Shown in pieces: positions 20,301-59,399 of a stretch of DNA of 64,000 bases (within the stretch, counting starts at the first letter, position 1; the number at the start of each line of letters is the position of its first letter). The notes beneath the pieces were generated by a model that was given only the letters and a program-made list of their open reading frames with translations, was not told where the DNA came from and did no database searches. This DNA is from Raillietiella orientalis (taxonomy: Eukaryota). Made by a program: the position numbers and the translations under genes. The DNA is taken from assembly GCA_036172245.1 (NCBI GenBank), contig JAYWIR010000032.1, forward strand, positions 558,001-622,000. Reading direction: 5' to 3'.

Positions 20301-23300
20301 CGTTCGAGGATCGGGTAAGCCCCTCCGTTTTATTGCCAGAAAGTGTTGCTGGCGATCTTGGTCTGCGGGGACCATCAACATCCGAACGATTTTCGCACCT
20401 CCGCGCGAGGGAAGCAGCACTTTCCGCTCCGTGGTGAGACGGAGCGATTTTTCTCCCGGCGCTTCGGATGGCCAACTCGGAAATGCTACCGAGGCCACGA
20501 TGCATACAGATTGATACAGAAGGAGTTTGCAGGAACGCAACGAGTTGCGGGGCAGCGAAGTGCCGCTACCAAGTCCACCGTCAAAGGATGGTGACTTTCC
20601 CCCCTTGGGATTCTGGAACGTCAGCATTCGAAATCTCCGCGGCTCGTGCGGCCCATCTCTCTTCCTTTTCTCCGACGGAAAATCTTGGAAGCCGTTCGCT
20701 TCGCGCGGCCAAGTCGGCGGCTCGCTTGCTTCCCCATGAAGATGAAAGAACAAGCCCAAGTCTGGAGCGGTTGAAATTCATCTCTCGACAGCATCCTTGC
20801 GATTGTGGCTACGCTTCCTCAAGGTCACATCTGTCTTCTTGCTTCTTGGGTTCGTCTTCCAGCGTCCAGTAAGCAAAAAAATTTGGAATCAACATTCTGG
20901 AAGCGCAGTCCGGGAATTGCTGGATGCCTGCGTTCGGAGCATTCCTGGTACTTGGCGGCGCCTTGCTTGGATCCCAGGAACTTGCAGAGACACCTTCAGG
21001 AAATGCGAAGAAAACAGGTGCGCTCATTAGCAACGAAAGTTTCCCAGAGCCGACGCTCTCGAAATTTCGCCTACCCTCGCGGTCGGGAGCACCTGGAGGG
21101 TCGGCTGGACGAGAGAGGGACGCGACATGGTCCCGCATTATCCTCTGCCTACGGGTGGGTGATCCCAGCATCTCGTCGCATAGGAGGGGAGAAGGAAAGG
21201 GGGGGCACAAAGCCCCGCAGACTGCCTGATAATCCTCTGGACACGCGTATTTTCGGTCGCGCGAGGTTCTCCTCGCTCCGTGGAACCCTTCGCGTATCTG
21301 TTGCGTGGCTATCAGGGAATTACCGTTCGCTCCTGTGCGTTCACCGGCGACGGCTTGCATGCCTGGGGGTAATCGGAACAGATTTTTCGACAGATCTGGA
21401 AGTCAGCAATACTGGTTTATGAAACGGTACTTGCAGTTTTTGCTTCCCTCGGAACCAAGAAAGAAGAGATTCAGTTAGCAGGAAACTAGAAACGAGAAAC
21501 TGCGTTTTTGTGAGCAACACGAAAAGGTCAAGCAGAAGGGAATGTGGGTGATCGCACGAGCGGCCGCCCATTCACTGAGTTCGTCCCGAGCTTCGTCTGG
21601 ACCGCGATCGAAGGATTCCGCAGCCTACAAGCACGTGGTTTCGTGGGACGGGGCGGAGCGCATGTCTCCTTGGAAACGTGCATCCCGGCCACCCGCACAG
21701 GTCGACGCCGCACGCGGGCACCCGTGGTCGGGGAGAGCAAATGAAACTGAGCTTGTGGTCGTCTCGCTTCCAGGGAAACCGACAGGCACGGAAGCAGGAA
21801 ACTGGTCACACCAGCGCGCGTCACCGGGCCCGAGAGATGAATGAACGACTCCCGCTCCGCGCCCGCGCATCCGTTTTTCTTCATGGAATTTTCTTCGGAA
21901 GAAGAGCGTCCGTCCACTCCGTTGTGTCGCAGAGAGCAGGAGAGATCTTTGATGAATCTTATTCCTCTGCTTGGCGAGAAACTGTCGTGTGCGTTCCGTT
22001 GTTACCTCTCTTAGCGTATCGTCATCTGGCAGGCCATGTCCTTTCGGTTGCAGCCGCTCGAAATCCTCGGCGCCACTGTCTCCCAGAGTTGCCCCCTTGG
22101 CGAGAAAAATCCCTCGCGATTTATTTGCCTTCCCTCTTCCTTTTATCCGTTTTCAAATGCAGAACGCGGATCGAAAGTGCATGGGTCCATATTCTGCTCT
22201 GGTGCTCTCGCGGATTTTCTGTTACGAAAGTCCGTGCGCATCTCGTCCAGCATTCTTTTTTATTAGGCACCTCGCCTACAAGAAATATAACAACAACAAC
22301 AGCAACAAAAAGACATGCCATCATGTTTATGGCCTTCTATCGCTATTTCCGAAGATGGAAGCGCTGACCCAATTGCAGGGGTAGTTCGAGTGGATGCGCC
22401 ACCCGAAGCACCCCTGCAATTGGCTCCGCGCTTCCATCTTCAGTCGTCTGCGCCGTTCTTCGTCTGCTCCTTTTCCTGGTGCCGGTTGGCAGCGAAGGCT
22501 CGGACTGCCGAAAACCAGAGTGGAAACCAGAGTTAGAGCCAGTGGCGCGCGCCTGTGTACACGTACACACGTGTGTGTACATGTGCCGCGTGCGCATGTG
22601 TGCTGAAGAGAGGAGGGGGACAAGAGCAGGCGGGTGAAGTGTTGAGGGCTGGAGTGGAGTGGTGTCGAGGGTAATTAAGAACCGGGAAAAAGCTCAGTAA
22701 TTCAGGAGCAAACGGTCTTCCGGTAGACGACGGCAAACAGCGTCTTCGAAGGGAGCGCGGTTAAGTAAACACGTCTTGTGGATTCTGCGGGAGGACTTTT
22801 TTTTCCCGGGGAGAGCGCTTGCGTTTGGCTCCAGCCTGCAGCGTTTGCTCTCGAAAGCTCATCCGCGCATCTTTTAATCGAGCCTGTTCCCACTGCTGTT
22901 TCGCAACGGAGAAGAGGGGAGAAGGAAGGGGAGGAAGGGGAACTTCGAGACGAGAGGGCAGATATCTCGGGCTTCTTGTTTCCCTGGAGTATGTGCTCGA
23001 CAGCCAGCAGCGCCCACCCGCTCTCCACCGCCGCCGACAGAGAGCCTGCGGTCCCACAAACTGATCCCTGCGGTGGCTTCTTCCTCCTCTTTCTCTCGCC
23101 TCTCCTTCCGATTCCCGCTGGCGGAAGAGACCCAGCCTCTGCGAACTGGGTCGATTTCAAAGGCACGACGCGCCACCCGGAGGTCCGCCGGAGAGGTCTT
23201 CGAGGAGTCCGCGCATGCGCGGCTCCAACCGTGGGGCTGGGGAGGGGCACACCCTCCGACTCGGTCGCTCCTTGGTGCGGAGCATCCTCTATTCAGGGCA

Positions 23301-25420: not shown

Positions 25421-26739
25421 ACTCCCTCGCTCCTTCCTGTTCTGCGCTCTCTCGTAACCTCCAGGGGAGACTCCCTGGTCACCTGCTGTAGGGTCGTCGG
25501 GTCGTCCGCGGTGCGCCTCCTCGCACGCTCTACTTCCTTGTTGTGGGTCCCTCTGGAAACTTTGGAGTGATGGCGGGGGGCTTCCCGCGCCGTCCACGAG
25601 GCGGGTCAGGGGAGGAGCAGGGAAGGGAAGGAGCTCGGAAAACCCGAGTTCCCGGTTCCCCAGGCGATGCTTTTCGGACGTTCTTCGAGGTGGCCTAACA
25701 GTGAGAGCCCGGAGGCATTCTCCAAGAGTCTCGCGCGTGATCTCCTGGGAGTCAGCTCTCGGTGCGCTAGAGCTGCTGACCTCCCGGAAGTGGTTCCTCG
25801 AGACGGATTTCATTCCCCCCAGGAAGTGAGGTCGAGTAGGACTCCCTGTGGGCGCTCCGGGAGGCCGAGAGGTGCGCTCGAATAGCCGACGGTTGTTTTC
25901 GGCCGGAAGGTCACAAATCGATCGCGGAGGGCCGCCCAGGATGCCTCGCGGGAGTCAGCTCCCGGTGTGACCTTCATCGGCTCAGGAAGACTCGTGTGTC
26001 TCTCTCGAGGAGGGAGGAGGGTTCATCGCTCAAGTGGTCCCTAGATGTGGACAGATAAAGGTCGAAGAGTCACTCCCTCCGTCATCCGCCCCCGCGCCGG
26101 ATGATGAGGGACGCGAGAGAGCTCGCCGCACCTCACAGGGCGGGCTCGCGCGGCACCGCGGGTGCAAGTCGACTCGTCCTCGGGCCGCAGCTATCGAGGG
26201 AACCAAGGACCTCCACAGGGGGCCCTCATCGCGAGGGGTCGAGAAGGAAAGGGGGTCGCGCGGTACGGGGGAAAACGAGCACAGCCCGCGCAAACGCCTG
26301 GAAGCCTCTAGGGGCTTCCGGGTGCTCATGACGGAGACGCAGGGTGCCACTACGGCCCCATTCGAGGAGTGAAGGGCCCGGCAGTGCGCGGAGGGGGTCG
26401 GGAACCCATCCCCAAAGGCTGTGTCTTTAGGGAAAACAGGAAAGGTGCAGCCGGCGTCCCACCGGGGGAAGAAGAGGAGGCGAAGGGCTGGAAGGAAAGG
26501 CGCTCGCCGCTCGGGGTCTCGGAAGCCGTGCAGAAGCGCTCATGCGCCGTACACCGAGTACGCGCGCTCGCCAGTGCGGCGGGGAACGCACGTGGGCCTC
26601 TGTAAGTCCTGCGGAAGTGGCCGGGGCACAGTGAACATTCGACCTCGTGAGCACGAGGTTGCGCGGGAAGCAGAGAAGAAGGGATGGGTCCCGAAAGAGG
26701 AATCTTCCGGGCCACAGCCTGCCAGCAACTGCTACGTTT

Positions 26740-27021
26740 CTATTCCTTCCCTCTTCATATGTTTCTCTACCATTCTTTACCTTCCCCTCCTCGTTACAGT
26801 TACCCTTTCCTCCCTCCAACTTTTCTCCTTTTTCTCCTTCTGTTCATCTTCTTCCTTCTCCTTCCACTTCCCTTGCTATGCTTCTCCTCCTCCCTTTCTT
26901 TTTTTTCCTTTTCTCCCTTCCTCCTCCTCCTCCTCCTCTCGTCATCTTCTTTCTCCTTCTGCCTTCTTCTCCCTTCCTTCCTCAGTTTGCTTCTAACGAG
27001 TTGTCTTTTCCACCCTTCCAG
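26740..27021 (+). promoter_or_regulatory. 3' splice region of the 9715-bp NR0A intron: extended polypyrimidine tract, branch point and acceptor
   Basis: ~250 nt of almost pure C/T, AG-free from 26800 to 26983; CTAAC branch motif at 26993-26997; acceptor TTCCAG ending 27021. Confidence 0.85.
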
Positions 27022-27927
27022 TCGTTCTTCGGGCGCACGTACAACAACCTGCAGACCCTGAACGAGTGCAAGAACCAGGGCCGATGCGTCATCGACAAGA
27101 AAAATCGCACTTCCTGCAAGGCGTGCCGGCTGAAGAAGTGCTTCGTGGTCGGCATGTCGAAGAGCGGCTCCCGGTACGGGCGACGCTCCAACTGGTTCAA
27201 GATGCACTGCTTGCTGCAGGAGCAGGCCGCCAAGCATGCGGGAGGCGGCGGCGGCGGTGGTGGTGGCGGTCCTGGGGAGGGCCAGCACAGGGGGCTCCCC
27301 TTTCCTGGGGGCTTCTCCTTCAATGCTCTCTTCAACTTGCACGACGGCGGACTGAAGGTCGTCGACAAGGACGCCTTCCTTCCCGCTCCCCCCTCTATGC
27401 TGTCTGCGTACGCCTCCGCTCCGGGAGGCGGTGGGGGGCCGACCGCCCTGGACCCACGAGCGGCCGCCGCAGCAGCCGCCGCCGCCGTCGACGCGGCTGC
27501 CGCGTCCATCCACCAGAGCCTCCTCTTTCCCACTCCGACCTACTCGCCAGGAGGCAAGGTCGCGGCCTTCTCCTTCGTGGAAGGCCGTCTTCCTTTCGCC
27601 GCCCCCGCCGCCTTCGCCTCCTGGGTCTCTCCAGTCCCCCGCCCGCCGCAGGAGATGGAAGAGGGCGGACGCTCCAAGGCGCATCCTCCGGATCTATCTC
27701 CACCCCACGGTGACCTCGGAGCGGGCGCGTCTCCTTCCTCGTCCCCGGCTGCCCCCGCCGCCGCTGTGGCGGGCAAGCGCGCTGGTGGCGCGGGCGGAAG
27801 CAACGGGGACTTCCCCATGGACCTCTCCCTGAAGACCGCACGCGGAGGCGGAGCCGCCCACTTCCTTTGCCAGCCCCAGGCGTCCGCCATGCCCCTGGAC
27901 CTCAGCAGGAAGGAAGAGATCCGGTGA
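27022..27927 (+). CDS. knrl: Knirps-family (NR0A) nuclear receptor, coding exon 2 (second zinc finger, kni-box, repression tail); spliced protein 327 aa
   Basis: [68 protein letters not shown] continues exon 1 in frame. Poly-Gly and poly-Ala tracts follow, then PPDLS (27685), PMDLS (27814) and PLDLS (27892); stop TGA 27925-27927. No ligand-binding domain, as expected for NR0A. Confidence 0.97.
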
Positions 27928-31000: not shown

Positions 31001-32655
31001 CTACCCTTGTGGGGTACATCCGAGCGCTCGTCCACCTATCTCCTCACCGCCAGCGGAAAGCGACTGCTCAACGGCGGCGAAAAACACCCAGACAACTTCC
31101 CCCGTTCCTGCCCCTCCCCGCGAGGATCGGCAGCATCCTCTCCGATCGCCGAAACGGCGGCTCGGTCACTGCTGCTGACCCCATCCTGCTACTTCGGGTC
31201 GCGGTGAATGCGAGGGAGCAGCTCAAGTCGAAGTCTGGGAGGGTCCTCGTCAGGGGAAAGGAACGGGGTAAGGGGGTTGCGGTGAAAGGACGATCGTGAG
31301 AAAACGGAGCGACCCTTTCTGTTTCTGGCCGGCGGTTGCGCTTCTCCTCTCGCCCGCGGTAACCCTGCTGGGGAACTCCGAGTGACCGGATAGCGCCGTG
31401 CTGCCCTTAGAGGTCTTAGTTGCCAGATACAGCTTCGGGTTGTCCTCCACTCCCGGAAGCTGGTCACAACTTGTGCTTCCCGTTCTCCTCGCCAACGGTC
31501 GGGAAGATCCCGAGCAGTCGGCTCCTTGATTGCACAGAGATTTCCTTCCGGGAAACCTTGAGGTGGATTCCCAGGACTTTCCTTGCCCAACGCAAAGCTC
31601 CAGAGCTGCCGACGGCTTCCGGCCTCTTCGGAAACGAGACTCACTTTTCAACCCCACCTCTCCTATCGGGAGCTGCAGCAGAGATAGCCCGGGCTTCGAA
31701 TCCATTCGCACATCTTGCAGCGGTTCTCATGGGATGACCTTGCATTTGATTCCCGTATCGGCTGAATCATTCCCACAAACTTGGCCAAGTAAAAGAAATG
31801 CACGCTCATCTGTCTTTTCCAAGTTCGGGTGATGAATTACCAGGGGCGAGAAAAAGGAAAAAAACGAAAAGCAAAAAAAAAAAACAAAAACAAACGAGGC
31901 AATGTTTATTCTTTTCAGGAAAGTTTGAGATGAAGGCAGTCTCGCCGGAATTAATTTATGTAGATGAAATCATCTTTATTTATGAAAATTGGCATTTTTT
32001 CCTCCTCCTCATTCGTTAAAGTACACAACGATCGAAAGCAAAACAACGCGGTTCGTTATCCTTGCGAGCACAGCGTCGGGATACTCGGCAGCATCCTCGT
32101 ACACGGAAATGATTGACAAGTTCTCACGGCAAAGGAAAATCATCCAAGTGAGCACTTTTGTAACCATCGCGCGCTGTGCTTTCGAAGGAAATCTTTCTCT
32201 TGCTTCAGATCGCGTGCTGCTCAATGGGCTCACTGCATTCTCTGCAGCTTCGGCTGGAAGACATCGGACAGGAATTTGAATGTTCAAGTTCACTGGTGCT
32301 TCCGATATCGTCAGGTGCCCCACGAAAATCTCCGGTTGCTTTTCGCGAGCAGCTTCACGTTAGGTTGACAAGTGATCCCACGCGGTGGCTACACCAATGC
32401 GTCCGCTATATCCTTGCCATACCATCATTGCATTACCTCGTGAACATCGTTGGCAGATTGATCTCTTTCTCGTCGCAAAGCATTGTTTTCTAAGGTCCCC
32501 AGTGGTCTCGATTACGGACAAAAGTCTGTTTTCATGCTCGTGAACTAAGCAGGTTGCAACAATCGGCGCTGCAACTTTTAGAGATTCAAAAATGTAGATG
32601 CCAATGGGCCTTGTAAGTTTGCATTTAAAACGTATTTCATTATCGGGCAATGAGT

Positions 32656-32910
32656 CTTCCCAAGCCTTTCGTCGAGTGTTTCATTGTTGAGCAGCGAATC
32701 TTTCAAAGCCTTTCGTCGAGTGCTTCATTGTTGAGCAGCGAATCTTTCAAAGCCTTTCGTCGAGTGCTTCATTGTTGAGCAGCGAATCTTTCCAAGCCTT
32801 TCGTCGAGTGTTTCATTGTTGAGCAGCGAATCTTTCAAAGCCTTTCGTCGAGTGCTTCATTGTTGAGCAGCGAATCTTTCCAAGCCTTTCGTCGAGTGTT
32901 TCATTGTTGA
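32656..32910. repeat. Minisatellite, 44-bp unit x ~5.7
   Basis: (C/A)AAGCCTTTCGTCGAGTG(T/C)TTCATTGTTGAGCAGCGAATCTTTC repeated head-to-tail with no unique spacers. Confidence 0.97.
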
Positions 32911-33699
32911 ACACTTTGATTGCCGAATCGCGGAGGGCACTTCGAATTCAGGGAATCGCGAATTCAGCAAGTGTGGCATTGCTGCGAAAAATTCCTTCCA
33001 CAAAACATTTCGCTGCATGACTTCAGCTCAAACACATTAAAGAAAAAGTCCCTCAATCCCAAGAGCATAGCGACACCTGCATGCATTCCTCAGCCCCTTG
33101 AATGATGTCTTTTTTGGAAATGGACATAAACATTCGCTTTTGAACTTCCAGAAAATCTGCGCTTTTCGAAACACTCTCGAAAGATCTATTGCAATTAGAA
33201 TGGAAATGAATCTCTGAAGCGTGATCTTGTAAGGAACTGCTCTCTGATTTCAGAGTATTTCGAAATGGGAAGATCCGAATATACGGTAGAGCTTATTAGT
33301 CGAACTCTTAACGTAGTCAGATTTCTAAGCTTCACTTGCTTTCGTGCTAACACGTAATGGAGAAACGGCCTTCTGAAGTACCATGCTGAGAGCCATAGGA
33401 AGAAAGGCATCCTAAGAAAGTCATCCTAAATTGAATGTAAGTGTGAACGAAATTCATGAAATGAAATCAACTGCAAACATAATTAATTGCTAATTCATAT
33501 GATCAGAAGTAAACAAAAAAAACACTTATTCGTCTTCATTTGATTCCCACGAAGCGGCTGCATCTTAAAAGACACAGTGCTCATAAAAGGAAAAACAGGA
33601 AATTGGAAGTGTTTCGACAAGACTTGGCCAGTGCATGATGCTTGGTTTTGTTTTTGAAGGGATTCAGCTCAACCTGACTTTGTGGATGCTTCCAGGTTT

Positions 33700-34932: not shown

Positions 34933-34998
34933 GATCAGCGACGACATGGATGGGTGGGCGTCTTGGATGACGCCCACCCTTCCATGTCGCCACTGATC
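34933..34998. other. Long hairpin (30-bp arms, 6-nt loop)
   Basis: GATCAGCGACGACATGGATGGGTGGGCGTC-TTGGAT-GACGCCCACCCTTCCATGTCGCCACTGATC; 3 mismatches. Confidence 0.9.
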
Positions 34999-44779: not shown

Positions 44780-45505
44780 AGGCCATCCGTCTTCCACCAG
44801 TGCCGCACCCTCCCCTTAAAGTGACAGGAATCGACGTTGATACTGCTGTACTGGGTCCTCCTGTGCTACGCCCGCCGGCATCAGTGGATACGGGGGAAGA
44901 GGGTGAACTCAAACTGCGCAAGGTGCGGGGAGCAAGAATCCCTCCCGTACCTTCTAGTGGACTGTGAGGACTCTTTTCCGCGACCCTTGGAACCCCCGGC
45001 GGCAACGCCACAGACGTTTGAAAGCTCCTCTTCTTGAGAGATGCCCTCATGCCGGCAGACAGCATCCCTAGCAGCACTGCGCTGCCCACGCGGCGGGCCC
45101 GTGGCTGCATGAAGCAGCCACGCCAGAGAACAGAACGACAGGGATGCCATCTGCTTTGCTGTCCTCTTCATGAGAACAGCGTCAAGAAGGTCTCACCTGG
45201 GAGCCATGAAACAGGAACTTGCCGGCATCCTTACAGGGATGCAGAGGATACTCTCCAGCACCCAGTGGTCCCTTCCCGAACCCCTCCATTTTTTTGACTG
45301 TATTTTTTTTGGTTTTCTTTTCTTTTTTTTTTTGATTGTCTTCCCTTCCCCTGTGATGCCAAGGCGAGCACCACCTCCCTGAGTGCCAGATCCCGGCAGG
45401 TTCCTTCTCGTTGTTGTAGGTAACGAGGCAGGATCGAACGTCCTGCCACATTCGTGTACGTTTATTTTATAAATAAACGCCTCGGCGTGACCCGGCTGGT
45501 GTCAA
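44780..45505 (+). mobile_element. L1/Tx1-like retrotransposon 3' part (copy B)
   Basis: LLYWVLLCYARRHQW..NCARCGEQESLPYLLVDC (zf-RVT-like CxxC..E..[H]L..C), then AICFAVLFMRTASRRSHLGAMKQELAGILTGMQR. Terminus TATAAATAAACGCCTCGGCGTGACCCGGCTGGTGTCAA. No TSD found. Confidence 0.8.
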
Positions 45506-47517: not shown

Positions 47518-49794
47518 GTGGGCCACGAGCTCGTCAGCCCAGATGCATCTTCGCAAGGCACCGACACCCATTTCGGATTCTGCGGGGCCGATTCGCCTTT
47601 GATGCCTTTCGGTGAACGACGATCCGTTACAGAGCTCCGACTGATTTTGGCCGTCATGGGGTTGACTGCTTCGGCGAGAGCTTGTCTCGTAGCAACCCCA
47701 CGCAAACCGGGAGCCTTTCTGTTCGTCTACCGAGCGAAGTCTCCCGACCGATGGGAAAAGGAGTTCAGGAAGGTGACGCCACTCATGGTTACCGCTTGCC
47801 GGACGCCGGTTTCCGGAAGCACCATCAGGAACGCCCCCTTCCGTCGACCGGCCGCTTCCGAGGTTCCCATCGACAGAACAGATCGATGGGAATACCCATC
47901 CTCGGCTTGCCGATGTGCGCTTGGAATTCTGCGATCCCCGCCGTTGAATCGGAACGCCATTGGCGGCGGGAGGCGCGAAACTAGAGAAAGGCATGATCTG
48001 AGTGGACGCTCTGCTTCTGGACCACGTCAGACGAAACAGCGTCCTGATTCACTTTAACGCTTCTTCGAGGGCACTTTTCCAACCCCAGAAGCAGAAAAAA
48101 GATAAGCGCAGGTTTCGAAAGATACCCCCCACCCACGCTGCCCGTGCCCTTGTTAGGCTCGTAGATAAGGTGGGTTCTCCGCCCGCTTTTTGCAGCGTGT
48201 GTGACTCGTGGTCATCTCCGCACAGTGCGCACGCCTGCCATTTCCAATCCATCATAGGCACTCGAGGTGTCAAATGTTCGCCCTACGGGAAAAGCAAGCG
48301 TCCGTCGTTGCCCGTTCCCTCCCCAACGTGCCTCGTCTGCTCTCGTGGGCTCGACCGCGTGATGCATCCAGATCGATGCCCCCTATTAAGTAGCATTAAA
48401 AGGCGAACGATGGACCTCCTCAGAATCGGCTTCTGGAACACAGTCAAGTCCTGAGTCCGCCTACAGGACTAGTGAGCTACGCGCCGCCGCGGAGAACTCG
48501 ACCTCCCAGGCTCCCAGCGTCACCTGACGCTGGGAGCCTAGAGCGGCAGCTCCAGTGGAGGACGCTTGCCCTGGTGGCAGAGCATTGGAGCACCAACTGG
48601 TGCGAGCCTGCACGACACGTGGTCAAGCGACCCACCAACTACGCGGTACTGTCTTCGTTCCTGGCGCGGCAACGCTGAAGCAACGTGTCCCACTGCGGAA
48701 TGGAGCTCCGGCGGGTGGTGATGCTGACCAGGGTCAACAACTGAATCTTCTATCGTTCCACGAACAGTAGTGCCTGGTTGCATGAAACCGTTCTCACGTA
48801 GGCCAAGAACAACGAAGCGAGCCCGGAGATGCGGCAGCGACTGCTGCACTCCTCCTACAACAACTGCTCGCTGCAGGACATCATCGTACAGCCCACCATG
48901 TGTGCGTGGGTGCAAAGAACCTCCCTAGCCTCTGCACTACCCTCCTTCAGGGAACACCTGGCCCGCCAAATAGGAGGCCATTTGCCAAATAGGTCATCGG
49001 ACGACGGAATTGGGCGGTTGGATCACGGACCAGCTCACGGACGCTGCGACCCCAAGTGCCCACCGAAGGGACTATTGCGCTGGGGTCAGCTGCTGGAAAT
49101 ACCACATGAAGACCTCGAGTGAACGCTGAAGAACAGCTGAGCCACAGGGAGGCGGCACTTCTGCTGCTGCACTGGGGTCTCCCGTGCTACGCCCGTCCGT
49201 CTCACTGGACCCGGGGGACTGTCGACCTCAACAGTTGCAGGTGCAGGAAACGGGAATCCCAGCTCTCGCATCTCTCCTAGACTGCGTTGCCCTCCGGTCC
49301 CTGTGGTTACACTACCCTTGGTGCACCGACGAGCAGTCCCAGGGACGAGATGAAGAGCCCTTTCGCCTGCCGCATCCCCAGCAGCTCCTTGCTGCCGCCT
49401 ACGCGGGATTGCGGCGTTCCGGAGCTACTCGAGAGGAGGACGGGTCGATAGACAACACGCATCTGCTTCGCCCAGCGCTTCATGAGGACGGCAGCAAGAT
49501 GACCCTACCTGGGACATACTCGGATCGAGATTGCAGGTATCCTGGAAAGGATGCAGAGGACGCCCTTCAGCGGACAGTGATCCCTTTCCGTGCCCCCCAG
49601 AGTGTTTTTTATTAAATATCGATTTTTATTCTTTTTTGTCCCTCTCCCCTCCGCTGCCGAGGCGAACCTCGCCGACCTGTGTGCCGGTTACTCTGCAGGT
49701 TCCGAACATTTTCGGACGATGTAGGGCCGATGGTTCTACGCATGTATGGTTATTGTTTTTTATAATAAACGTTCCGGCGTGACCGGGTGATAAA
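47518..49794 (+). mobile_element. Internally deleted L1/Tx1-like retrotransposon (copy C); 5' end approximate
   Basis: ORF1-like region with knuckle CSVCDSWSSPHSAHAC (~48190-48240). ORF2 start MDLLRIGFWN at 48410 (APE endonuclease N-terminal motif); RT core absent. C-terminus LLLHWGLPCYAR..CRCRKRES, ICFAQRFMRTAAR; terminus TATAATAAACGTTCCGGCGTGACCGGGTGATAAA. Confidence 0.8.
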
Positions 49795-50251
49795 CCAGAC
49801 CGCATTTTCTCAATGCCCCCCTCCCCCTACGTTGCGCAGTAATTGGGGCGAACAGCTGTGAGGCACAAAACGCAGAGGAGGGAGGGCCCAGTACGTTTCC
49901 GAGGCAACGGCAAGTGCGCATCCGCCGCTGGTCGTGCGGTTTGGTTCACTGCCCGATTCGCGTTCAGGACAAAGAGGAACGGACAGAGCGTAACTGCCGC
50001 AGGGGGTTCCAAAGAGGACGGAGTTCCGAGGCTGCTCCTCCGGGTGAATTCCGAAGAGCTTAGACTGAATGACATTGTGGAATATCGGCGCGAGGCGACC
50101 CGGGGCGCAAACGAACGCACAGAATGCAGCACTCAAAGAGTGGGGTGAATGTTGGCAGACGATCTCAGGAAGGCAGAAGAGAGCATTGGATCTCGATCGA
50201 CGATGTCCTCCACTCACGCGGCATTCTGCAGAGTGTTCTTCAGCCGCCTCC

Positions 50252-50386
50252 TTGGCGGTCGTGTGGAGCGGCGGTAGGCGTAGGATTCTCCGCAGGCGTA
50301 GCATCAAGCGTTGCGGGTTCGAATCTCGCAAGGGGAAGAATCCACACCAAAGAAATGGGTGCGTCGTGGGTTTCCCTTCGCAAAAA
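50252..50386 (+). mobile_element. tRNA-derived SINE (copy 2)
   Basis: A-box-like TGGAGCGGCGG, B-box GGTTCGAATC (50316-50325), shared core AGAAATGGGTGCGTCGTGGGTT..CCCTTCGCA and a short A run. No proper cloverleaf. Confidence 0.7.
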
Positions 50387-50999
50387 TTCAAAAGCATCCC
50401 TGAGAGGTTCTCTTCAAAGAAGGACACAAAGAGCGGTTTCCTCGAGAGAATAAATTCAGGAGCCCATCCTTTTCAAGTTCCCTTCGTAGAAGAAATGACG
50501 CGTGCTCCCCTCCGAGAGTTCCCACCAGAGGGAATAAAGAAGAGGTTCCCTTCTAGATTCCCTCCCAGGAGTGTGAAGAGTGAACTTTTCCTCCGGAAAA
50601 GTCCGCTTCTTGATTTATAGGGTGGTCGCCTCCCATGGTACCCCCACCAACTCGAAGAGTTGCACCTATCTTCGGATGGCGTGGACAGTGTCAAAGGGTT
50701 TCGTGCCTCCTCTCCCTGATGAGGCAAACGGTTCCTGTGCATGTTGTCGCCAAGAGGCTAGAAGAGCAAAGAAGGATGACATGTTGATATCGGTAATTTT
50801 TATTTTTTCGCTTCTCCGCCGAACAGAAAACTCAATCATCCGCTGCCAGAAGCGACCGTTCCTGTTCGGGAAAATCCTTGGATGTTCAAAGAGAGACGCT
50901 TTCCTTGAGCAATGCTAATAGATGCTTGGCCAAAGCTTGAGTGAATGGGGGTGGTCTTCCAGCCTCTAGTATGATGAAAGCAACTCAAGAAAAAGCCCT

Positions 51000-51940
51000 T
51001 GCTTCTTCCCTGCATCGCTTCCTTCACGTAAGAGCAACCCAAGGGATCCTGGACAGCATCCGAAGTAACACTTGGCATTCTCCGAAGGGAATTCATCAAC
51101 GTGTGTTCGGAAAGCACAACGACAGCATTCCAAAGATGCGCGGAGGAAAGAAGGATAGATGCGTACTACAAGCCTTTCGATGTCGGCTGTCCGATTCAGC
51201 TCACGCCACCATCATCGGACCGTGGGACACCTAGAGCAACGGTATTTAGTAAGAACCGGGAATCCCAGAAGAGCACGGTTCCATGATCAAGTGAGCGAAG
51301 GGCTTTCATCCAAGGAGGAGCGGAACAAAGGGAGCGGGCTCTTTGCGACCCTCACCATCCCAGTGCCCTGCCCATAGGTGATGATGCGGACTCCGAAAAT
51401 CCTTCTTCGCATCCGCGTCGGCTGCTGCATGTTCTTGGGTGTTTCCTCCATGGAATATCGTGGCCATACCTTACAGCCAACCACAAGGCGCAGCCGTGTG
51501 ATCTCTAGCTGCTGCATCACCTTTTCATCCTGGGGTCCACAGGATTCAAGCACATTACGACTCGGGGGGTCACTTGAAGTCAACAAGGTGGCAGGGTGGC
51601 ACTCGAAATTCGCCCGGGGTGCTTTGGAAGAAGTGTAGAAAGTACCCTTAGCCATGTTGTTGATCAACTAAATGTTGGTAAAAGTGTTCCTCAAGGTCCC
51701 GAGCAGGTGGGCTTCACCTACTAATATGACCAGACAAACTTCTTCCATAGGGAACTCTGAGCAGCCCAGTACGGACGACACCATTCTAAAAAAAAAGGAT
51801 TGCAAGGTGGAGGAGGACGCAGAAAACGTCGGGGATGACCATTCTTGTTTCCTGGAGCAGTGCCAGATCTGGATGGAGACCAGAGTCCATTGCGGGGAGT
51901 AGATTTACATCTCCAGCAGGTGAGTCGATGCGTCCTGTCT
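51000..51940 (-). mobile_element. Decayed non-LTR APE endonuclease and tether region
   Basis: RLTCW.., HPDLALLQETR (51843-51875), LVDFK (GDFN-like), SLDHGTV (SDH-like, ~51281-51294) and a downstream IPW occur in the expected order; many frameshifts. Confidence 0.6.
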
Positions 51941-52199
51941 CCGAGGGCACGCGGGAGACCGCCACTGTATTTTAGCTCAGGGGGCAGCATCTCGTCCCAA
52001 ACTTGCCATCTTCTGTGGCCACGTTCTTATTCGCTCCCGGATCCGGAGCACGTTGAGCCGAGGAGCACAAACCTCTTCCCCTGAAGACATGGCTCGCCCG
52101 TGGTCCCTGCTACTCTCCATCGGGGAAAGGAGGACACTGCGCTGAAGGTTGCAGGCAGCTGCTCAAACTTTTTCCTCAAGTTCGCACCGAATGCGCTGT

Positions 52200-52460
52200 T
52201 TCCGACGACGATCTCACAAGCGTCCATCTTGCTCTCGCACGAGATGACACTTGTCTGTCCGATACCGGCAAGCTTCTCATGTCCACACTTTTCTTTCAGG
52301 ATTCCAGCAAGACCTTCCGACATCCGGCGCACTCGATGTCCTGCGGTCCTCCCCACTTCAGTTTTTGCTCGATGCTGTGGTCGGAACTGTGCCTTCGATC
52401 CCTCGAGGAGCATGTCGGAGCACATGGTTTCCTTACCGATGCGTTCCCCGCATTGCTTAG
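52200..52460 (-). mobile_element. Gag-like remnant (Gypsy/Mag-type zinc-knuckle region)
   Basis: DHSIEQKL followed by ECAGCRK and EACRYRTDKCHL across frameshifts, resembling DxxIxxKL and CxxC..H..CRYRxxxCHxC. Confidence 0.35.
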
Positions 52461-55400
52461 AGGTCTTCAGTTACTCTTCTTACTGCCTTGTTGTCTCTGA
52501 CGGACACTGGCACTCCTTTGCCTGGGAACCGGTCATCTGCATGTGAGTCCCTGGAGACATCTAATGGAACCGGAAGCAAAGTGGCAGATTTATGCAATCG
52601 AAACACCAAGAGTGGATGCACCTGTGAGGTCAAACAGCGCCGAAATTCGAACCAGAAGGAGGCTCCATAACTTCCGTTGCCAAAAACTGGTCCGTGGCCC
52701 AAACCGCGGTGGTGGACGTGCAGCGCTTCTACGATCCTGAATGAACCTCGAGGGAAACCTGAGAGTGCACCTTTTCGCGGTGCGCGCTCCAGAACGAGTT
52801 CCGCCTTCTCTCAAGATCATCACAGTGACATCACAAGGGAAGGTCAAAGAGAGAGATTGCTGCTTCTTCGGGTACTGGAAAGGACCGCTTGCAGACCGCG
52901 TGGGCTCATTGAGTCGCCGAAGGTGGGAATCGAAATTTCTTTCCTTCTTCAACCCAGCTGCTGGGACACAGCCCGCTTTTCGCAGCAGTTCGACACTCGG
53001 CTCCACGTGCTGCGGCGCAGCTGACTCGCGCTCTCGCGCGCTTCGAAGGGTTCAGGAGCGAGGGGGAATGCACGCATCTCCAGAACTCCATCCGTCCTAG
53101 CCGAGAGGATGACATATGGCTTCGAGCACTTCAGGACAAACAAATGAGTCCCCGTGGTGAGTCCGAAGAGGGGAAATCGACCGCGGTCGGGGCGAAAAGT
53201 AGGTGCCTTATTAACTGGGATGTTTCGTGGAAACGCATGAGCGCCCTGAAGAAAGGGACCAGTGGCCATCGAAGAAGAGATCGAGAGCCCAGTTGAATCT
53301 GAAACGAAAGCAAAGCGTCCACGGGCCGTATGCTCCACGCTGTTTTTGTTTTTCCAATTTCCCAGAAGTTCCTCATGGAAGAATCCACCCCGTTCAGTTT
53401 CTCCAGGGAAAGCATGAATCTTCTTTTTCACCACTTGGTGCTTGGGCGGAGCGAGTGTTTGCCCTGCTGTATCCAAATAGGTGAGAAACCCGAGACTCGA
53501 GCTGCCCTCCACAAATGAATGCAATCCATCCTGAAAATCCAGAAGGTCCCAGGCATCCTGACGTGCGTTCTGCGAATGGGTTTCGTCGTTGGCTGCGCTG
53601 GACAGGCGAAGACTTCTTGCTTCCGTTTTTTTCTTATCAATCTACTGGAATCCACTTTCAGTTGGATGATTCTCCAAAGTTCTGGAGATGGATCAGGATA
53701 GTATAGAGAAAACAAAAACGTATTTGTTACCAGGAGGGTAAACCGGAGTCGGAAATAGCTTGTTACCTGGCACTGCTGTTCATCCACCCGCCATGGGGGT
53801 CGAACGGAATGGATGGTGCTTTCCGATATCCAAAGATCAATGGAAGTACCCAAGGATCCAAAGACCTGCTCGGTGTCCGGGTGTTAGATTAAAAGACCGC
53901 CGCGCGCGGCCTCAACGGGAGCAACAGAGAAAATTCCCGCTACTGCACACACAAAAAAATATTCCTTCCCCCCCCCCCCCCATTCGGACGGCACACCTCC
54001 ACCCTTGAGCGGTCGCCACGGACCAGCCCCTAGCCATCAGCGACAAGCTTGGGCAGGTCGAGGGAAGGGTGTGAGGTGTGGAAAATTCCCTCTCTCGTAT
54101 TTCTACACGTGATCCCGAAATAATGATAATAATAATAGAACCATAAAGGCAGCCGTTCTCTTTCGGATGCCTCCTCGGGAAGTTTGCTAATTAAACCACG
54201 AGAGGAAACCTCATCAAAGAGCGCGGATGAGAAAGACACAGATGTTCGTCTTCTTGGTCTGACTAATCGGTTTGCTTGGTCATCCGGATGTTAACCCCTC
54301 TCGCCGTTGCGAATGCAGCATCCGGATGCTTGGCACCGTGCCTTAATTTAATCAAAGTAAGGAAAGGAGACGGCCGCGCCTCACGGCCGGCAAAGAGCCG
54401 CAAGTTAATGGCCGGAGCTCCTGGCATCCTCCTCCCCTCTGGACCGAAAGAAATAGCCGCCTCGACGTTGCTTTTAATCGCGCCCATGCTCACTCCGCAG
54501 CGCTGAAACGCTCCAGCATCTTCTTCGTCATTATGTTAATTGCAGATGAAAGCACGCTTCTCAAAGCGTTTCGCTCCCAAAAGGGATCTCCTACGATTAC
54601 GGTACGCCAGGGAGTCCTCCCGAATTCGTGCTCCGCTGTTTCCATCTCTAAACCATCGAATTAAACGCTACCCATTCTGAAGAGGCAGCCAGCTTTAATG
54701 GACCACACACGCTCTCGAGATCCTAAGGCCTGTGGTGTTCCTGAAGTGAGGTCTTCTCCAGTGGGCTTCTAGAGCGGCGAAGGGTGCCTTGAACGTTTCG
54801 CGGATGCGGGAGGCAGGTAATGCAAGGGTCCCGTCCTTCCGGCCAACAGGGAGCCCATCGCGAAGCAGCAGCCGAGTGAAGGGTTCGTGGCTTCCGTGCC
54901 GAGTGAGAGAGACTGGCTACGCGTGCGCGGGCCTGATGGGTACAGACGTCTTCTTGGAAGACTCATCCTTTCTCTTTTCGCTCCAGGGACCGAATTTTGC
55001 GGAAGATGCAACAACAGCCGGTCCCTGATCATCTAAATCTCCTTCTCATCCCTCATCCCACGTGAGCACTGGAAGGCTGCATTTCTCTCTTCTTCCCTGT
55101 TTAGCTCTGAACCTCTGGGACGAAGCGAGGAGAAAAGAGCTGGAGTTCGTGGAGTTCACCCTCTATCTGGGATCCCCCGAGAAAATTCCCATCCTTTCCT
55201 AATGGGGACGTATCTTTCGGCGGCAAGTGACTGTCGTGGAAGCGTAGTAACGCGAGCGGCCACCCTGTGGTTTGCAAGTGCCTTGGACGGCTCTAGGTCA
55301 TCTTCTCAGCGGCAGCGGCAGAGGTGGTAGGGGCACTGTGGGAGAAAGGCAACCGGCACAGTGTAGGCCTCAGACGATGCGGATTCCAAGGGAACGCTCC

Positions 55401-55902
55401 GTAGGACCTGTGTCCGATAGCTGGTTCTTTGAAGTGGCTTCAGAGGGCTGCTTGCGAGAAGCAGACTCACCTCAGAGGTCAATGGTTTCATAATGCGGGA
55501 TGAAATAATGGACGACGTTACCGCGTCCATTATTTCATTACCGTCTTCAAGATCGCCAAGCACGTACACCGCGTCCATGGCTGATGCGGGATACCTGAAT
55601 CGCGGCCTGCCCGATGTCTTCCTTTCTTGGTGGGCTTCGAAGTCCGAGCTGCCGGCGCAACCGCCTCTCTTTTTGGTCTTTAACCATGAAAGCGGGAGGG
55701 AAGGAATCTTCCGAGACTGGCAAGCCTGCTCGCCCGCCAGACGATCAGCGGAATCAGGGAAGGGCACGTTCCCGAGCTCGCTGGTAACAGCCGGAGTAGA
55801 CTGCTGCCGAACAACCTGATCTCTGAAGTCCGACTGGATTCCACTGAAGATCCCCAAGGCAGGTACTTCAAGTACCTTGGCCCCCGATGGACAACTCGGA
55901 CG

Positions 55903-55984
55903 CTGCCGAAGCATGGTCCAGCTGTCTTAGGAAGGCTGAGAGCCATTTCAACCTTCCTAAGACAGCTGGACCACGCTTCGGTAG
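55903..55984. other. Near-perfect ~82-bp palindrome/hairpin
   Basis: CTGCCGAAGCATGGTCCAGCTGTCTTAGGAAGGCTGAGA-GCCA-TTTCAACCTTCCTAAGACAGCTGGACCACGCTTCGGTAG; 22 consecutive perfect pairs in the core. Confidence 0.92.
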
Positions 55985-56649
55985 TGGTCCATTCCCCCAT
56001 GTCAATTTCAACTTGGCGGAATGGACGGCAATCTGGAACACTTTCGCAGCTCCCCCATCTCCCTAAGAGACGAAGCTCTGAGATAAACGCCTGCAGAGGA
56101 AAGTCCTCTGGGGACCCGCGAGGTCCAAGATCCGCCTCAAAGACTTGGCGGCTCTGAGTCAGGATGCCGGTTTAGGCATCCCGACCCTGGAGAGAATCGG
56201 GCCGGAGGCACAGTTTTAAATACTGGAACCTTGTGCCAAGCTGTGAATTTTCCCGCTTCGTGCGGCAGAGCGCCTCACCCTTGAGAGCAAAGGACCGGCA
56301 GCAAAGGACTCCTACCGTTGTTGCCACGCTTCCGGCAGAGGATGCGGGATTGGGCTTCCCCCTGGGGCAAGAGTCGCCTCCCTTCTGGAAGTCCATCCGT
56401 GGATCTCCTGCCTTCTCCCGGACTCTACTGCTTGGCAGCAGGAGCCGGTCCTGTCCTGGGCTGCGTTCCAAGGAATGCTCCCAGAGGAGCTTCGTTTCCT
56501 GCGACTCCTCCTGAACCATTTTTTGGAGGAGGTGCTGCTGCAAAAACAAGCTGAGGACGCTGGCCGCCGCGTCCCTTGCTGCAGCGCTGTATGCTCCACT
56601 TCGTGTTCGGTCTCCCTCCAGACTTTCGGGTGGTTCGAGACACTGGCCA

Positions 56650-56980
56650 GGGAGAGGATGAGGCATCGCAGCTTCGTGACCTCGGATTCCCGAATTCCCT
56701 CTGCTTGAGCGAGGGAGCTCCTCGCAGCGAACGGGGAACGCCGCCGTGCCGCGCACATCCGACGGTCATTCTGCCCGCCGAATCAGGTGTCTTCCGCGAT
56801 GCCTCTGGCCGGAGTGGGGTAAAACCCCTCCGAGGAGCTCGGTCTGCTTGCTGGAGAGAAGGGCTGCAGCCAATCGCATTCCTGAACGCAGTACTGCCCA
56901 CTCTGATGTCGTTCGAATTATGACCGCGATTACGTCTTTCCTTCGTGACCCGGAGAAAATAGCCCTTCCTTTGTTTTGAT
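56650..56980 (-). mobile_element. Decayed RNase H domain of a non-LTR retrotransposon (I/Nimb-like)
   Basis: AIFSGSRR..IAVII (IYTDGS-like), RLAAALLSSKQTELLG (Sx.QAEL-like) and GNSGIRGHEAA (HxGIxGNExAD-like), in the correct order. Confidence 0.6.
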
Positions 56981-57206
56981 CTCGCTGCAAACACTGGTTG
57001 GAGACCATTAGCATTCAGATTGCTTGTTTGCCTTCAGATTAGCATCAGTGGGATGGGACTCGTTGAAGAAGGTTCCAGATCCTGGTGGAACTCGGTCCAG
57101 CGGTTCGATATCCCGAGCTAAAGACGCCCTGTGCTCCGCTCATCCCCAGAGCTGAGACGCAGTCGGGACAGGGAGGAACCAGAGTTTCGTGCGGCGGCCA
57201 CTTTGG

Positions 57207-57983
57207 TCTATCGCCCGGTAATGCTGGGACGCTTATTATAAAAAACAATAACCATACATGCGTAGAACCATCGGCCCTACATCGTCCGAAAATGTTCGGA
57301 ACCTGCAGAGTAACCGGCACACAGGTCGGCGAGGTTCGCCTCGGCAGCGGAGGGGAGAGGGACAAAAAAGAATAAAAATCGATATTTAATAAAAAACACT
57401 CTGGGGGGCACGGAAAGGGATCACTGTCCGCTGAAGGGCGTCCTCTGCATCCTTTCCAGGATACCTGCAATCTCGATCCGAGTATGTCCCAGGTAGGGTC
57501 ATCTTGCTGCCGTCCTCATGAAGCGCTGGGCGAAGCAGATGCGTGTTGTCTATCGTACCGTCCTCCTCTCGAGTAGCTCCGGAACGCCGCAATCCCGCGT
57601 AGGCGGCAGCAAGGAGCTGCTGGAGATGCGGCAGGCGAAAGGGCTCTTCATCTCGTCCCTGGGACTGCTCGTCGGTGCACCAAGGGTAGTGTAACCACAG
57701 GGACCGGAGGGCAACGCAGTCTAGGAGAGATGCGAGAGCTGGGATTCCCGTTTCCTGCACCTGCAACTGTTGAGGTCGACAGTCCCCCGGGTCCAGTGAG
57801 ACGGACGGGCGTAGCACGGGAGACCCCAGTGCAGCAGCAGAAGTGCCGCCTCCCTGTGGCTCAGCTGTTCTTCAGCGTTCACTCGAGGTCTTCATGTGGT
57901 ATTTCCAGCAGCTGACCCCAGCGCAATAGTCCCTTCGGTGGGCACTTGGGGTCGCAGCGTCCTTGAACCGTGCCGTGGTTTAA
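57207..57983 (-). mobile_element. 5'-truncated L1/Tx1-like retrotransposon (copy D) with 9-bp TSD; inverted near-identical partner of copy C
   Basis: 57233-57962 is the reverse complement of 49039-49768 with 3 nt differences. Direct repeat CCACTTTGG at 57198-57206 and 57984-57992. Confidence 0.9.
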
Positions 57984-58687
57984 CCACTTTGGCGGCTACT
58001 TTGCGTTCCCGAAGCGCGCGCCTCGATCCCGTCGTGAACCTGGAACATCGCAAGGAACCACGGAAGCGATCAGAGGGAGCGAAAGATGGGAGGGAACTTC
58101 GCTGCTCTGGTATGCTTGAAAACGTATGCTCCTTAATGGAGTATCCGAGACGGGTAGCTCCGGAGAAAGGCTGCACTGCGCTGATCGAGACGCACAGACG
58201 AACCGCTGAGGAGGAGAAATAGGAGGGAGGGGTACCAAGTTCGGTCGAAGATGGCTTGCGGGAGCCTGAAGAAGGCGCTTGGGAAGGGCACATTCGATCT
58301 TCTCGTTGGTGGGATAAGATAAACCGAGGGGAGGTCGTGGCATTTTGCAAACGCGCTTGATCTTTCGTCAAAATTCAAGCGCTGTGGGGGATCCGCTCGT
58401 GTTGCGGTATCTCGGGACGGCGGAGTCGCAAGCTCTCACCGCGTGCTCACTTCCTTCCGGGGAACAGGGAAGCTGTCCGGCACGACTCGAGGAAAGGAAA
58501 ACGATCATGGATCGAAAGTAAGAGGAATCTGTTTGAAGTGGCCATGTTCCTTGAGGAACACATCCCATTCATCAGGAAGGATCCACCAACTACTATGCCT
58601 TATATTGCAACTCCCTATGTTTTAGAGGGAAGCCAATACACTAGTAATAAATAATCCAAAGGGGGTAGAAAGAAAAATTTGTCCCGG

Positions 58688-59143
58688 GAAGCGAATCATT
58701 CGCTTCACCGTTTCCAGAACCAACTCTGCGATTTTAATTACTGGGAATGCACGTGATGATCATTTACTGCAACTATGCAGATTCTTGTGGTCCCTTTGCT
58801 TTTAAGTGAGCCTCCCAGAGTCAAGAATCCTCACGCCGAACTGGTTTCCCAGTTCTTGCTGTTTCCCTGAGCTCCCGAGAAGGAAAGCTCGCGGTTCTCA
58901 CGTCTCCTTCCTTCCCTTTGAGCTCCTTCTGGGGAGCTGCCGGAAAGTTCTTCTGGGGCAAGGCGACGAGCAGGATGGCGCACTCCCAGAGAAGACCGCA
59001 TGCCGAGTGTTGCTTGGCTTCCGGGCGTTTGCTCCACTTTAGAGCAACATCTTTATAGTTGCAGTAAGTCATCTTCACGTGCATTCCCAGTAATTAAAGT
59101 CGCAGAGTTGGTTCTGGAAACGGTGAAGCGAATCAATCGCTTC
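58688..59143. mobile_element. MITE/foldback-like element with ~95-bp terminal inverted repeats
   Basis: 58698-58782 vs reverse complement of 59049-59133: 6 mismatches in 85 bp, extendable 10 bp outward. Interior of ~265 bp has no recognisable product; no clear TSD. Confidence 0.75.
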
Positions 59144-59399
59144 ACCGTTTCATTCGCTCTAAAATATAGAGATCTGTCATATAAGGCATAATAGAAGGTG
59201 GTGGGTCCTTCCTGATGAATGGAATGTCCATTTCCTTCAGGTTAATTGCTGCATCCTCTTTTGAGATGAAGCTGCAATCATCTTCACTTGCTCTCTGAGC
59301 AAAAGGAATCGGGAATTCTGTCATCCTTGTGCGTGAAGGATCCCCTGTAGTCCCTTTCGGTTTCTTGCTCCTCGATGATGCTCGATACTGAAGTACTTC

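Follow-up and report, generated by a model that had tools for sequence, protein, structure and literature searches.

Copies of an old LINE family in the genome of Raillietiella orientalis are paired off along contigs, such that many are nearly identical to a partner elsewhere on the same contig while their ends remain diverged. The distribution of identity suggests that this is probably the outcome of repeated non-crossover gene conversion limited to nearby templates in cis. As all of the copies come from a single assembly, we infer conversion from this pattern only.

Structure of the C/D pair

The window analyzed here (64,000 nucleotides of contig JAYWIR010000032.1) contains two LINE copies in inverted orientation, C and D (Table 1). 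Positions 49018-49794 of copy C align without gaps to the reverse complement of 57207-57983, with 18 mismatches in 777 nt that fall mostly at the ends: 8/21 in 49018-49038, 3/730 in 49039-49768 (at 49377, 49444, and 49445), and 7/26 in 49769-49794. This confirms the near-identical 730-nt core with diverged ends reported in the initial annotation, and similarity beyond the aligned block is at chance level. The edges are themselves homologous, as copy D has the family majority base at 14/21 and 20/26 positions. Within the core, C and D share the same 12 indels relative to the family column majority and 58 rare bases (present in <10% of other copies), whereas the two edges have no rare base in common. 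A third copy, L003, which lies 188 kb away, has 42 of these 58 bases in common with C. It also shares the part of copy C that reaches 5' past the overlap with D, to approximately position 48378.

Copy D retains both copies of its TSD (CCACTTTGG at 57198-57206 and 57984-57992), which supports the earlier view that there was no net crossover; an overlapping 13-bp alternative with one mismatch (57193-57205 / 57991-58003) scores equally well. For copy C, no TSD was found above the control level (score 5). The pair shows no sign of function. Sixteen stop-free frames of the spacer gave no Pfam family below E 0.07, nothing was found in five short frames of C, D, and neighboring copies, and eight of nine frames in another Pfam set lacked a significant family. 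A tRNA search of the window found none. The spacer includes a 1.9-kb sequence with one other copy, and the two differ along a 150-bp diverged edge and are ~99.5% identical elsewhere.

Table 1. Features of copies C and D and of the spacer between them (positions in the window)
Feature	Position	Strand	Remarks
Copy C, 5'-truncated LINE 3' end, ~1.4 kb	48378..49794	+	Family domains seen in other copies
Copy C content: ORF2 end (zinc-knuckle region decayed) followed by 3' UTR	48378..49794	+	
Segment of C missing from D, 99% identical to L003 (G000:C32:795565-796946)	48569..48928	+	356/360 columns identical
5' edge of C/D overlap, homologous, apparently unconverted	49018..49038	+	13/21 identical
Homogenized core, copy C	49039..49768	+	727/730 identical to D
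3' terminus of copy C, apparently unconverted	49769..49794	+	19/26 identical to D
Spacer of decayed repeats	49795..57197	.	16 stop-free frames vs Pfam
Two-copy 1.9-kb sequence within spacer	51221..53123	+	Twin at G000:C32:459859-461770, direct, 147 kb away
TSD at 3' end of copy D	57198..57206	-	CCACTTTGG
3' terminus of copy D, apparently unconverted	57207..57232	-	
Homogenized core, copy D	57233..57962	-	
5' truncated end of copy D, apparently unconverted	57963..57983	-	
TSD at 5' end of copy D	57984..58003	-	9 bp perfect (57984-57992), or 13 bp with one mismatch (57991-58003)

Identity of the LINE family

C and D belong to an old L1/Tx1-like LINE family and are 3' ends truncated on the 5' side. 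The clade name is based on domain order and PDB ranking, and copies of this family are ~80% alike. A longer copy, L194, matches the non-LTR-type reverse transcriptase domain RVT_1 (E 7e-13), and the best PDB matches are R2 and L1 ORF2; the reverse transcriptase region is absent from C and D through truncation. The C-terminal CCHC zinc knuckle that follows it (zf-RVT) was recovered in 5/5 copies tested at E 7e-6 to 8e-4, all just below the curated cut-off, and a CCHC pattern is present in 34 stop-free frames. No AP-type endonuclease was found in any focal-family copy examined, the longest of which is ~2.2 kb. A 1,199-aa relative with an N-terminal AP-type endonuclease is 64% identical to the focal family over its C-terminal 310 aa, and its best PDB match is human L1 ORF2. 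The 5' ends of family copies scatter over >800 nt and the 3' ends coincide, consistent with 5' truncation, and short, variable TSDs were identified in 27/95 copies (control 0.7%). Related LINEs with an intact ORF2 also exist.

Homogenized partners in cis

Our sample comprised 138 family copies from one assembly. Between contigs, none of 9,174 pairs reached 88% identity. On the same contig, 35/50 pairs closer than 200 kb reached 90%, a fraction that is inflated because the copies were drawn from best-40 match lists, which twins (the members of homogenized pairs) enter together. At 200-400 kb the count at or above 90% drops to 1/19, and beyond this to 0/202. The contrast between cis and trans is strong (Fisher p 4e-87), with the proviso that the pairs are not independent. 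Counts free of this selection are lower. Of four copies queried individually, one had a homogenized partner, and in an unselected 464-kb stretch, 13/60 repeat intervals had one, two of which also matched in trans at 85% or more.

The C/D pair is not special within the genome, as the 138 sampled copies include 31 such clusters, this pair among them, each with a private core on one contig; the conversion that had been proposed as a one-off local event is therefore better seen as one case of many. In a tree of 135 cores, 29/30 supported small clades are confined to one contig, and most have long shared stems and short tips. Insertions that are independent, with their own TSDs and unrelated flanks, group by position, contrary to their insertion history. 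Copy L004, 48-56 kb away from C and D, is 81-82% identical to them, yet it is 94% identical to a copy 54 kb away, and neighbors at 67-82% identity remain unconverted. A nearest-neighbor rule was ruled out, as the partner is frequently not the closest copy. The conversion model accommodates such partners only through a presumed history of escape.

Orientation has little bearing on the pattern. Below 200 kb, 15/23 direct, 13/17 convergent, and 7/10 divergent pairs are homogenized, and homogenized pairs extend out to 150-320 kb. Fold-back between inverted copies, the mechanism that the initial annotation favored, is therefore unnecessary, and palindrome-type conversion was rejected because its requirement for inverted orientation does not hold here.

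The same behavior is seen in other sequences. For a second family, 7/10 cis pairs closer than 200 kb reach at least 88%, and none of 404 trans alignments reach 85%. A third family, represented by a match table only, has a cis partner with 86% identity at 87 kb, and its other long matches are at or below 79%. Three two-copy sequences resemble the LINE twins, diverged edges included.

Edges, TSDs, and mosaic tracts

Mismatches were counted by position in 26 independent twin pairs. The outermost 30 nt have 154/780 at the 3' end, equal to the level of unrelated copies (20%), and 93/780 at the 5' end. Interiors more than 200 nt from an end differ by only 1-2% (258/18,539), while trans control pairs differ by 15-27% throughout. 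The ends of D depart from the family majority at 13/47 positions, which hinted at extra mutation at tract edges; this was ruled out, as the 3' edge distance to the family majority is alike in twins (14.5%) and in solos, the copies lacking a partner (13.6%). TSDs are also about equally frequent in twins (10/37) and solos (17/58) against a control of 0.7%, those of twins often have one mismatch, and three twin pairs have distinct TSDs at both members. Swapped TSDs were not seen in a small sample of eight testable inverted pairs, save one case explained by a shared flank.

Identity in twin pairs is mosaic and tract-like, and it fails at the edges of homology. Across 350 interior windows of 100 nt, 213 have 0-1 mismatches, 55 have 2-4, 27 have 5-9, 33 have 10-14, and 22 have 15 or more, whereas none of 2,138 trans windows have fewer than five. 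C and L003 form a patchwork of segments at 100%, ~90%, and ~65%, and in many pairs stretches of 500-1,038 nt match perfectly. The core differences have the spectrum of ordinary divergence (transitions, 239/392 vs 2,906/4,865; CpG context, 29% vs 29%), with 29 gaps in 23,739 columns. In inspected pairs, the shared sequence ends at the 3' terminus of the element and the flanks are unrelated. Some pairs have perfect ends (3' of L087/L019; 5' of L025/L021 and L098/L104). In addition, 17 bp of the 5' flank of L015, including the L015 TSD, recur in its twin L010. Plain conversion predicts neither observation. Twins have a higher GC content than solos (58.3% vs 56.9%, p 7e-4), and the excess is located at CpG sites, of which 10.0% are lost in twins and 15.6% in solos (p 9e-6), with no significant difference outside them (p 0.28, 0.19). 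Lower methylation would produce the same CpG result as GC-biased resolution.

Origin of the homogenized pairs

Repeated cis-limited conversion would mean that C and D inserted separately and long ago, as members of a LINE family now dead, and that they have since served repeatedly as repair templates for each other, with C doing so also for the copy 188 kb away. The pathway would be non-crossover homologous repair, probably gene conversion of the SDSA type. Tracts would seldom extend into the last 20-60 nt because homology stops there, so that only the core would be reset and the edges would still show their full age. The choice of template would be confined to roughly 200-300 kb of the same DNA molecule in either orientation, perhaps through chromatin looping, and it would depend on sequence, with similar partners going on converting and drifted neighbors having escaped. 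Of the initial annotation, non-allelic gene conversion between independently inserted old copies is supported, whereas fold-back as the mechanism and a one-off local event are not supported.

A single recent conversion that tolerated mismatches and replaced ~730 nt in a copy already 20% diverged, with no long history of exchange, is unlikely, although it comes closest to the wording of the initial annotation. Such an event would fit the abrupt shift in D from 3/730 to ~30% mismatch and the perfect runs in many pairs, and the D core could come whole from C, including the 42 rare bases that C shares with L003. However, intermediate divergence in 115/350 interior windows needs events of many ages, as does the C/L003 patchwork, and a process this tolerant is at odds with the neighbors left unconverted at 67-82%. 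Overwriting a 20%-diverged copy also sits poorly with the 89-100% identity at which reviews, as excerpted in PMC8230782, place efficient gene conversion. Across the family, the data indicate that events recurred during its lifetime, though copy D itself may have undergone a single recent overwrite. We consider it very unlikely that assembly or polishing wrote the consensus of one copy into a nearby one. This is one unverified assembly with long perfect runs, and polishing could remove the last differences between copies that are ~99% alike, but copies at 80% identity are readily distinguished, and a pasted consensus would leave only 100% or 80% segments instead of the graded series observed. 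The core differences, with their transitions, CpG context, and few gaps, look like real divergence, barcode gap filling is made less likely by the finding that none of the 808,940 bases examined is an N, and no long-read step is known to favor same-contig partners at 5-320 kb.

A recent local duplication, with the second copy arising by templated insertion at a break and the diverged ends being scars of the junctions, is highly improbable as the origin of the pairs. In its favor, three twins have just two copies in the genome search, and L010 shares 17 bp of 5' flank, TSD included, with L015; templated insertion may be the source of a minority of pairs such as L010/L015. In the inspected pairs, however, sharing stops at the 3' terminus next to unrelated flanks, the ends are homologous to the family and normally aged, and D as well as both members of three pairs have TSDs of their own; even the two-copy twins have homologous diverged margins of 20-200 nt. 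Recent retrotransposition is extremely unlikely, whether by a recombinant active subfamily or by dead copies mobilized in trans and reinserting near their source, even though the related LINEs with intact ORF2 could provide the enzyme. The 31 private single-contig cores, with no trans pair at 88%, argue against it, as do TSDs that are no commoner in twins than in solos and are often mismatched. Target-primed reverse transcription starts copying at the 3' end, yet the 3' ends are the most diverged part. The initial annotation had named many genomic copies with the C/D core as a finding that would count against local conversion; among the best 40 matches listed, the best outside the window pair and one same-contig copy was 78%, which leaves conversion unrefuted and, with the lack of sampled trans pairs at 88%, led us to reject a recombinant active subfamily.

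Comparison with known systems

Gene conversion between neighboring Alu elements (Aleshin and Zhi 2010) has been reported as a statistical signal with a range of ~10 kb, and, in the excerpts cited, dispersed non-LTR copies are likewise homogenized more when close, with partial tracts yielding hybrid copies (PMC8230782, PMC6598467). Unlike in that account, here whole copies of 0.6-1.4 kb are raised from 80% to 95-99.5% out to 150-320 kb, and no sampled trans pair exceeds 87%. Concerted evolution with escape (Teshima and Innan 2004), in which recurrent conversion holds divergence low until it becomes clock-like, is summarized in PMC6598467 and PMC3924837, and it fits the tree seen here, with its long stems and short tips, as well as the pairs that have partly escaped. 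In those summaries it is described mainly for gene duplicates, whereas here independent dead TE insertions pair off, with partners chosen within a family that offers thousands of candidate matches. Arm-to-arm conversion on the primate Y and in rotifer and springtail palindromes also gives near-identical inverted copies without net crossover, but as outlined in PMC7953838 palindromes need inverted orientation and long arms, and here the arms are ~1 kb and direct repeats convert about equally.

In humans, ectopic conversion declines with donor-acceptor distance, most steeply from 100 kb up, and shows GC bias; the contrast between intra- and inter-chromosomal conversion is ~2-2.4-fold in allele frequency, and trans conversion is detectable (bioRxiv 10.64898/2026.08.26.747289). 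Conversion drops with distance here as well, but in fixed sequence the cis-trans contrast comes close to all-or-none and the drop is complete by ~400 kb, a comparison that is loose because allele frequency and fixed sequence are different measures. Reporters in mammalian cells have revealed a cohesin-dependent homology search inside the damaged TAD (PMC12701822), and this orientation-independent, cis-limited search over hundreds of kilobases may be analogous in scale to what we see. Titles and abstract openings, from a search with most subscription journals outside it, contained no account of the family-wide pattern.

Implications

Gene conversion itself is known, and between transposon copies mostly as a weak, short-range signal; it is the strength and the sharp range here that are unusual. 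At least a fifth of the old repeat copies have apparently been made nearly identical again to a partner, which can lie as far as a few hundred kilobases away and, in our sample, is never on another contig. As the same pattern holds genome-wide to ~200 kb, near-identical copies need not be young, and such copies, young-looking duplications, and palindromes tell little of age or activity in this genome. The sharp fall-off offers a handle on the distance over which broken chromosomes look for a template in an actual germline, which until now has been addressed by reporter studies. We suggest tentatively that the germline homology search may be confined to ~200-300 kb in cis, perhaps by looping, and may act so frequently that dispersed repeats of any family, from a few hundred bases upward, become locked in partnerships that could persist throughout the history of the family. 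If this is true, dead repeats would be a direct record of the reach of the homology search and could be mapped to chromatin domains, and dating transposons and duplicates by their similarity would fail on a large scale in this genome.

An inverted pair of LINE copies with a near-identical core

The two inverted copies, C and D, align without gaps, and similarity beyond the aligned stretch is at chance level. The mismatch counts of the initial annotation proved exact (8 across the 21-nt 5′ edge, 3 across the 730-nt core and 7 across the 26-nt 3′ terminus), and the observation itself is real. All 12 indels relative to the family majority are common to both cores, as are 58 rare bases, with two private to each copy, while the edges have no rare bases in common. 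The target-site duplication (TSD) reported for D is present and can equally be read as an overlapping 13 bp with one mismatch, which has the same score; for copy C, TSD scoring gave nothing above the control level. A third copy (L003), 188 kb off, resembles C as a patchwork, with identity along the length of about 65%, 99%, 87–95%, 100% and 88%, and at window 49444–49445 D agrees with L003 and C differs.

A search of the eukaryotic assembly (210 Mb, 491 contigs) with the C/D repeat gave 3,330 first-look candidates. Copies of the C/D family have a common 3′ end and a variable 5′ end, one longer copy contains a non-LTR reverse transcriptase (RT), and all five copies tested had a zf-RVT match just below the cut-off. 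A related LINE with an open ORF2 of 1,199 aa is 64% identical to the family over the last 310 aa, and its top-ranked PDB entry is human L1 ORF2. Taken together, these features mark C and D as the 3′ parts of dead LINE copies, L1/Tx1-like by domain order and PDB ranking. More frames of at least 1,000 aa are present among related LINEs, and, given such long open frames, younger relatives of the family may still be active.

Features of the window and of related loci
Feature	Location	Strand or orientation	Remarks
Copy C	window ~48378–49794	+	reaches further 5′ than the overlap with D
Copy D	window 57207–57983	−	TSD at 57198–57206 and 57984–57992
C/D alignment	window 49018–49794 / 57207–57983	inverted	core 49039–49768 / 57233–57962
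Older related LINE 3′ end	window 44808–45501	+	67% to both C and D (over 45148–45404)
Second older related LINE 3′ end	window 4215–4539		70–79% to 44808–45501, inverted, 41 kb apart
Spacer block, 1.9 kb	window 51221–53123		twin at G000:C32:459859–461770, direct, 147 kb off; no Pfam match
Short MITE-like element	window 58560–59227		inverted arms 58688–58782 / 59049–59143 (92%) and 58560–58631 / 59153–59227 (81%)
Imperfect hairpins, 66–91 bp	window 22351–22441, 34933–34998, 55903–55984
Tandem repeats	window 7942–8150, 32632–32913		units ~58 and ~88 bp
Nuclear-receptor exon	window 26635–27927	+	zinc finger of the C4 type (E 1e-13 to Pfam zf-C4); frame presumably knirps-like, which would suggest an arthropod
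Nested twin pairs	G000:C32:606000–797000 (681/687, 669/696, 658/689, 663/719, 628/716, 606/795 kb)	mixed	around 670–700 kb
Flank of L015 within its twin L010	L010:1289–1306 (G000:C27)		17 bp of 5′ flank, including TSD; 51 kb apart
Related LINE L227	L227:411–4010 (G000:C83)		ORF2 with endonuclease, RT, zinc knuckle
Family copy L103	G000:C2:4696004–4697517		short internal segment flipped near 3′ end

Homogenisation in cis across the family

The initial annotation treated C/D as a lone event, but pairs of this kind recur across the genome. We aligned 138 family copies, taken from five hit lists plus one partner found separately, and left out 8 of the 9,453 pairs because they shared fewer than 300 columns. 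Among these copies, the 9,174 pairs on different contigs (trans) had a mean identity of 79.7% and a maximum of 87.0%. On the same contig (cis), identity was at least 90% in 4/4 pairs less than 10 kb apart, 5/5 at 10–30 kb, 9/11 at 30–60 kb, 6/10 at 60–100 kb, 11/20 at 100–200 kb, 1/19 at 200–400 kb, and 0/202 beyond. There are 31 clusters of two or three copies, every one on a single contig, which together hold 67 of the 138. Of the 30 small clades with support in a tree of 135 cores, 29 were confined to one contig, and most had short tips on stems of ~0.1.

Because twins (copies with a near-identical cis partner) come into a hit list together, this sampling makes their counts too high. In an unselected sample of 464 kb around the window, a cis partner of at least 85% was found for 13 of 60 repeat intervals, two of which also matched that high in trans; among intervals with more than 100 trans hits, 7 of 20 had a cis partner, and 4.2% of all bases lay inside such pairs. 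When four family copies were queried singly, a partial twin turned up for one of them, 4 kb off, and no full-length trans match of any of the four exceeded 84%. A fairer estimate of the share of copies with a cis twin is a fifth to a third. The nesting of some twin pairs (Table) could reflect a contact domain or mere repeat density.

A second and older family gave 404 trans alignments, all below 85% (the highest at 79.3%), and 7 of its 10 cis pairs within 200 kb were at least 88% identical. The top match of the third-family query was in cis, at 86%. Three sequences that a genome search found just twice have cis partners at 5.6, 30 and 147 kb with diverged margins; one is the 1.9-kb spacer block, in which the first 150 bp are ~25% diverged and the rest is ~99.5% identical.

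Origin of the twins

The edge profile, distinct TSDs and mosaic identity of the twins point to gene conversion as the correct type of explanation, as the initial annotation had proposed. In 26 independent pairs, drawn from the 32 with identity of at least 93%, the outer 30 nt had 154/780 mismatches at the 3′ terminus and 93/780 at the 5′ terminus, vs 258/18,539 more than 200 nt inward, while 25 trans control pairs had 15–27% mismatch all along. Twin 3′ edges deviate from the family majority about as much as the edges of solos, copies without such a partner (14.5% vs 13.6%), so these edges are just old. In retrotransposition the 3′ end is the first to be copied, yet it is the most diverged part of the twins, so this process cannot account for the profile. 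TSDs were detected in 10/37 twins, 17/58 solos and 0.7% of controls, and three twin pairs have a different TSD at either member. Interior windows of twin pairs range from identical through fully diverged, which, with the C/L003 patchwork and the D/L003 agreement, points to numerous events that differ in age.

The fold-back route suggested for C/D is not supported, as orientation makes no difference (15/23 direct, 13/17 convergent and 7/10 divergent pairs affected). Swapped TSDs were absent from 8 testable inverted pairs, except in L010, where the flank piece of its twin suggests copying beyond homology followed by closure by end joining. An artefact of assembly or polishing is a less likely source of twin identity: core differences between twins have the mutation spectrum of trans pairs, gaps are rare in twin cores, the 808,940 bases examined contain no N, and identity is graded rather than two-level. 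Polishing might still have erased a few real differences within the longest perfect runs.

Most probably, twins arise when breaks are repaired without crossover and a neighbouring copy serves as template. The template would sit on the same chromatid or its sister, and conversion would begin while copies are young and similar, and go on in pairs staying similar. From a two-copy balance at ~1.4% interior divergence, conversion would outpace mutation roughly 100-fold at each site, a figure biased upward because pairs were selected at ≥93%. The 27 cis pairs within 400 kb that are not twins have a slightly higher identity than pairs in trans (81.2% vs 79.7%; p 5e-4), as expected after early escape from conversion. 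Distance alone does not set partner choice: the family copy L004 lies between C/D and L003, yet is paired with another copy, and the older LINE 3′ end 3 kb from C is not homogenised. CpG sites are lost at 10.0% in twins vs 15.6% in solos, with no significant effect at other sites, which could reflect repair bias or lower methylation.

Comparison with known conversion

Conversion among transposable element copies is already established. Earlier work describes Alu conversion within ~10 kb (PMC8230782, PMC6598467, both citing Aleshin and Zhi 2010), a model of concerted evolution followed by escape (PMC6598467, PMC3924837), and palindrome conversion (PMC7953838). Compared with the Alu range given in those citing papers, the old LINE copies here are homogenised in cis over 200 kb. 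According to a 2026 preprint, human ectopic conversion falls off between 100 kb and 10 Mb, and its cis/trans gap is 2–2.4-fold (10.64898/2026.08.26.747289); here, by the different measure of fixed sequence identity, 0 of 9,174 sampled trans pairs exceeded 87.0%. In mammalian cells, cohesin loops guide the homology search (PMC12701822); the cis range here matches the scale on which they do so, and might be set by similar loops. In the part of the literature covered, we found no account of old LINE copies homogenised almost completely, and solely in cis, over 200 kb. The underlying process is ordinary, and what is unusual is its strength and sharp cis range.
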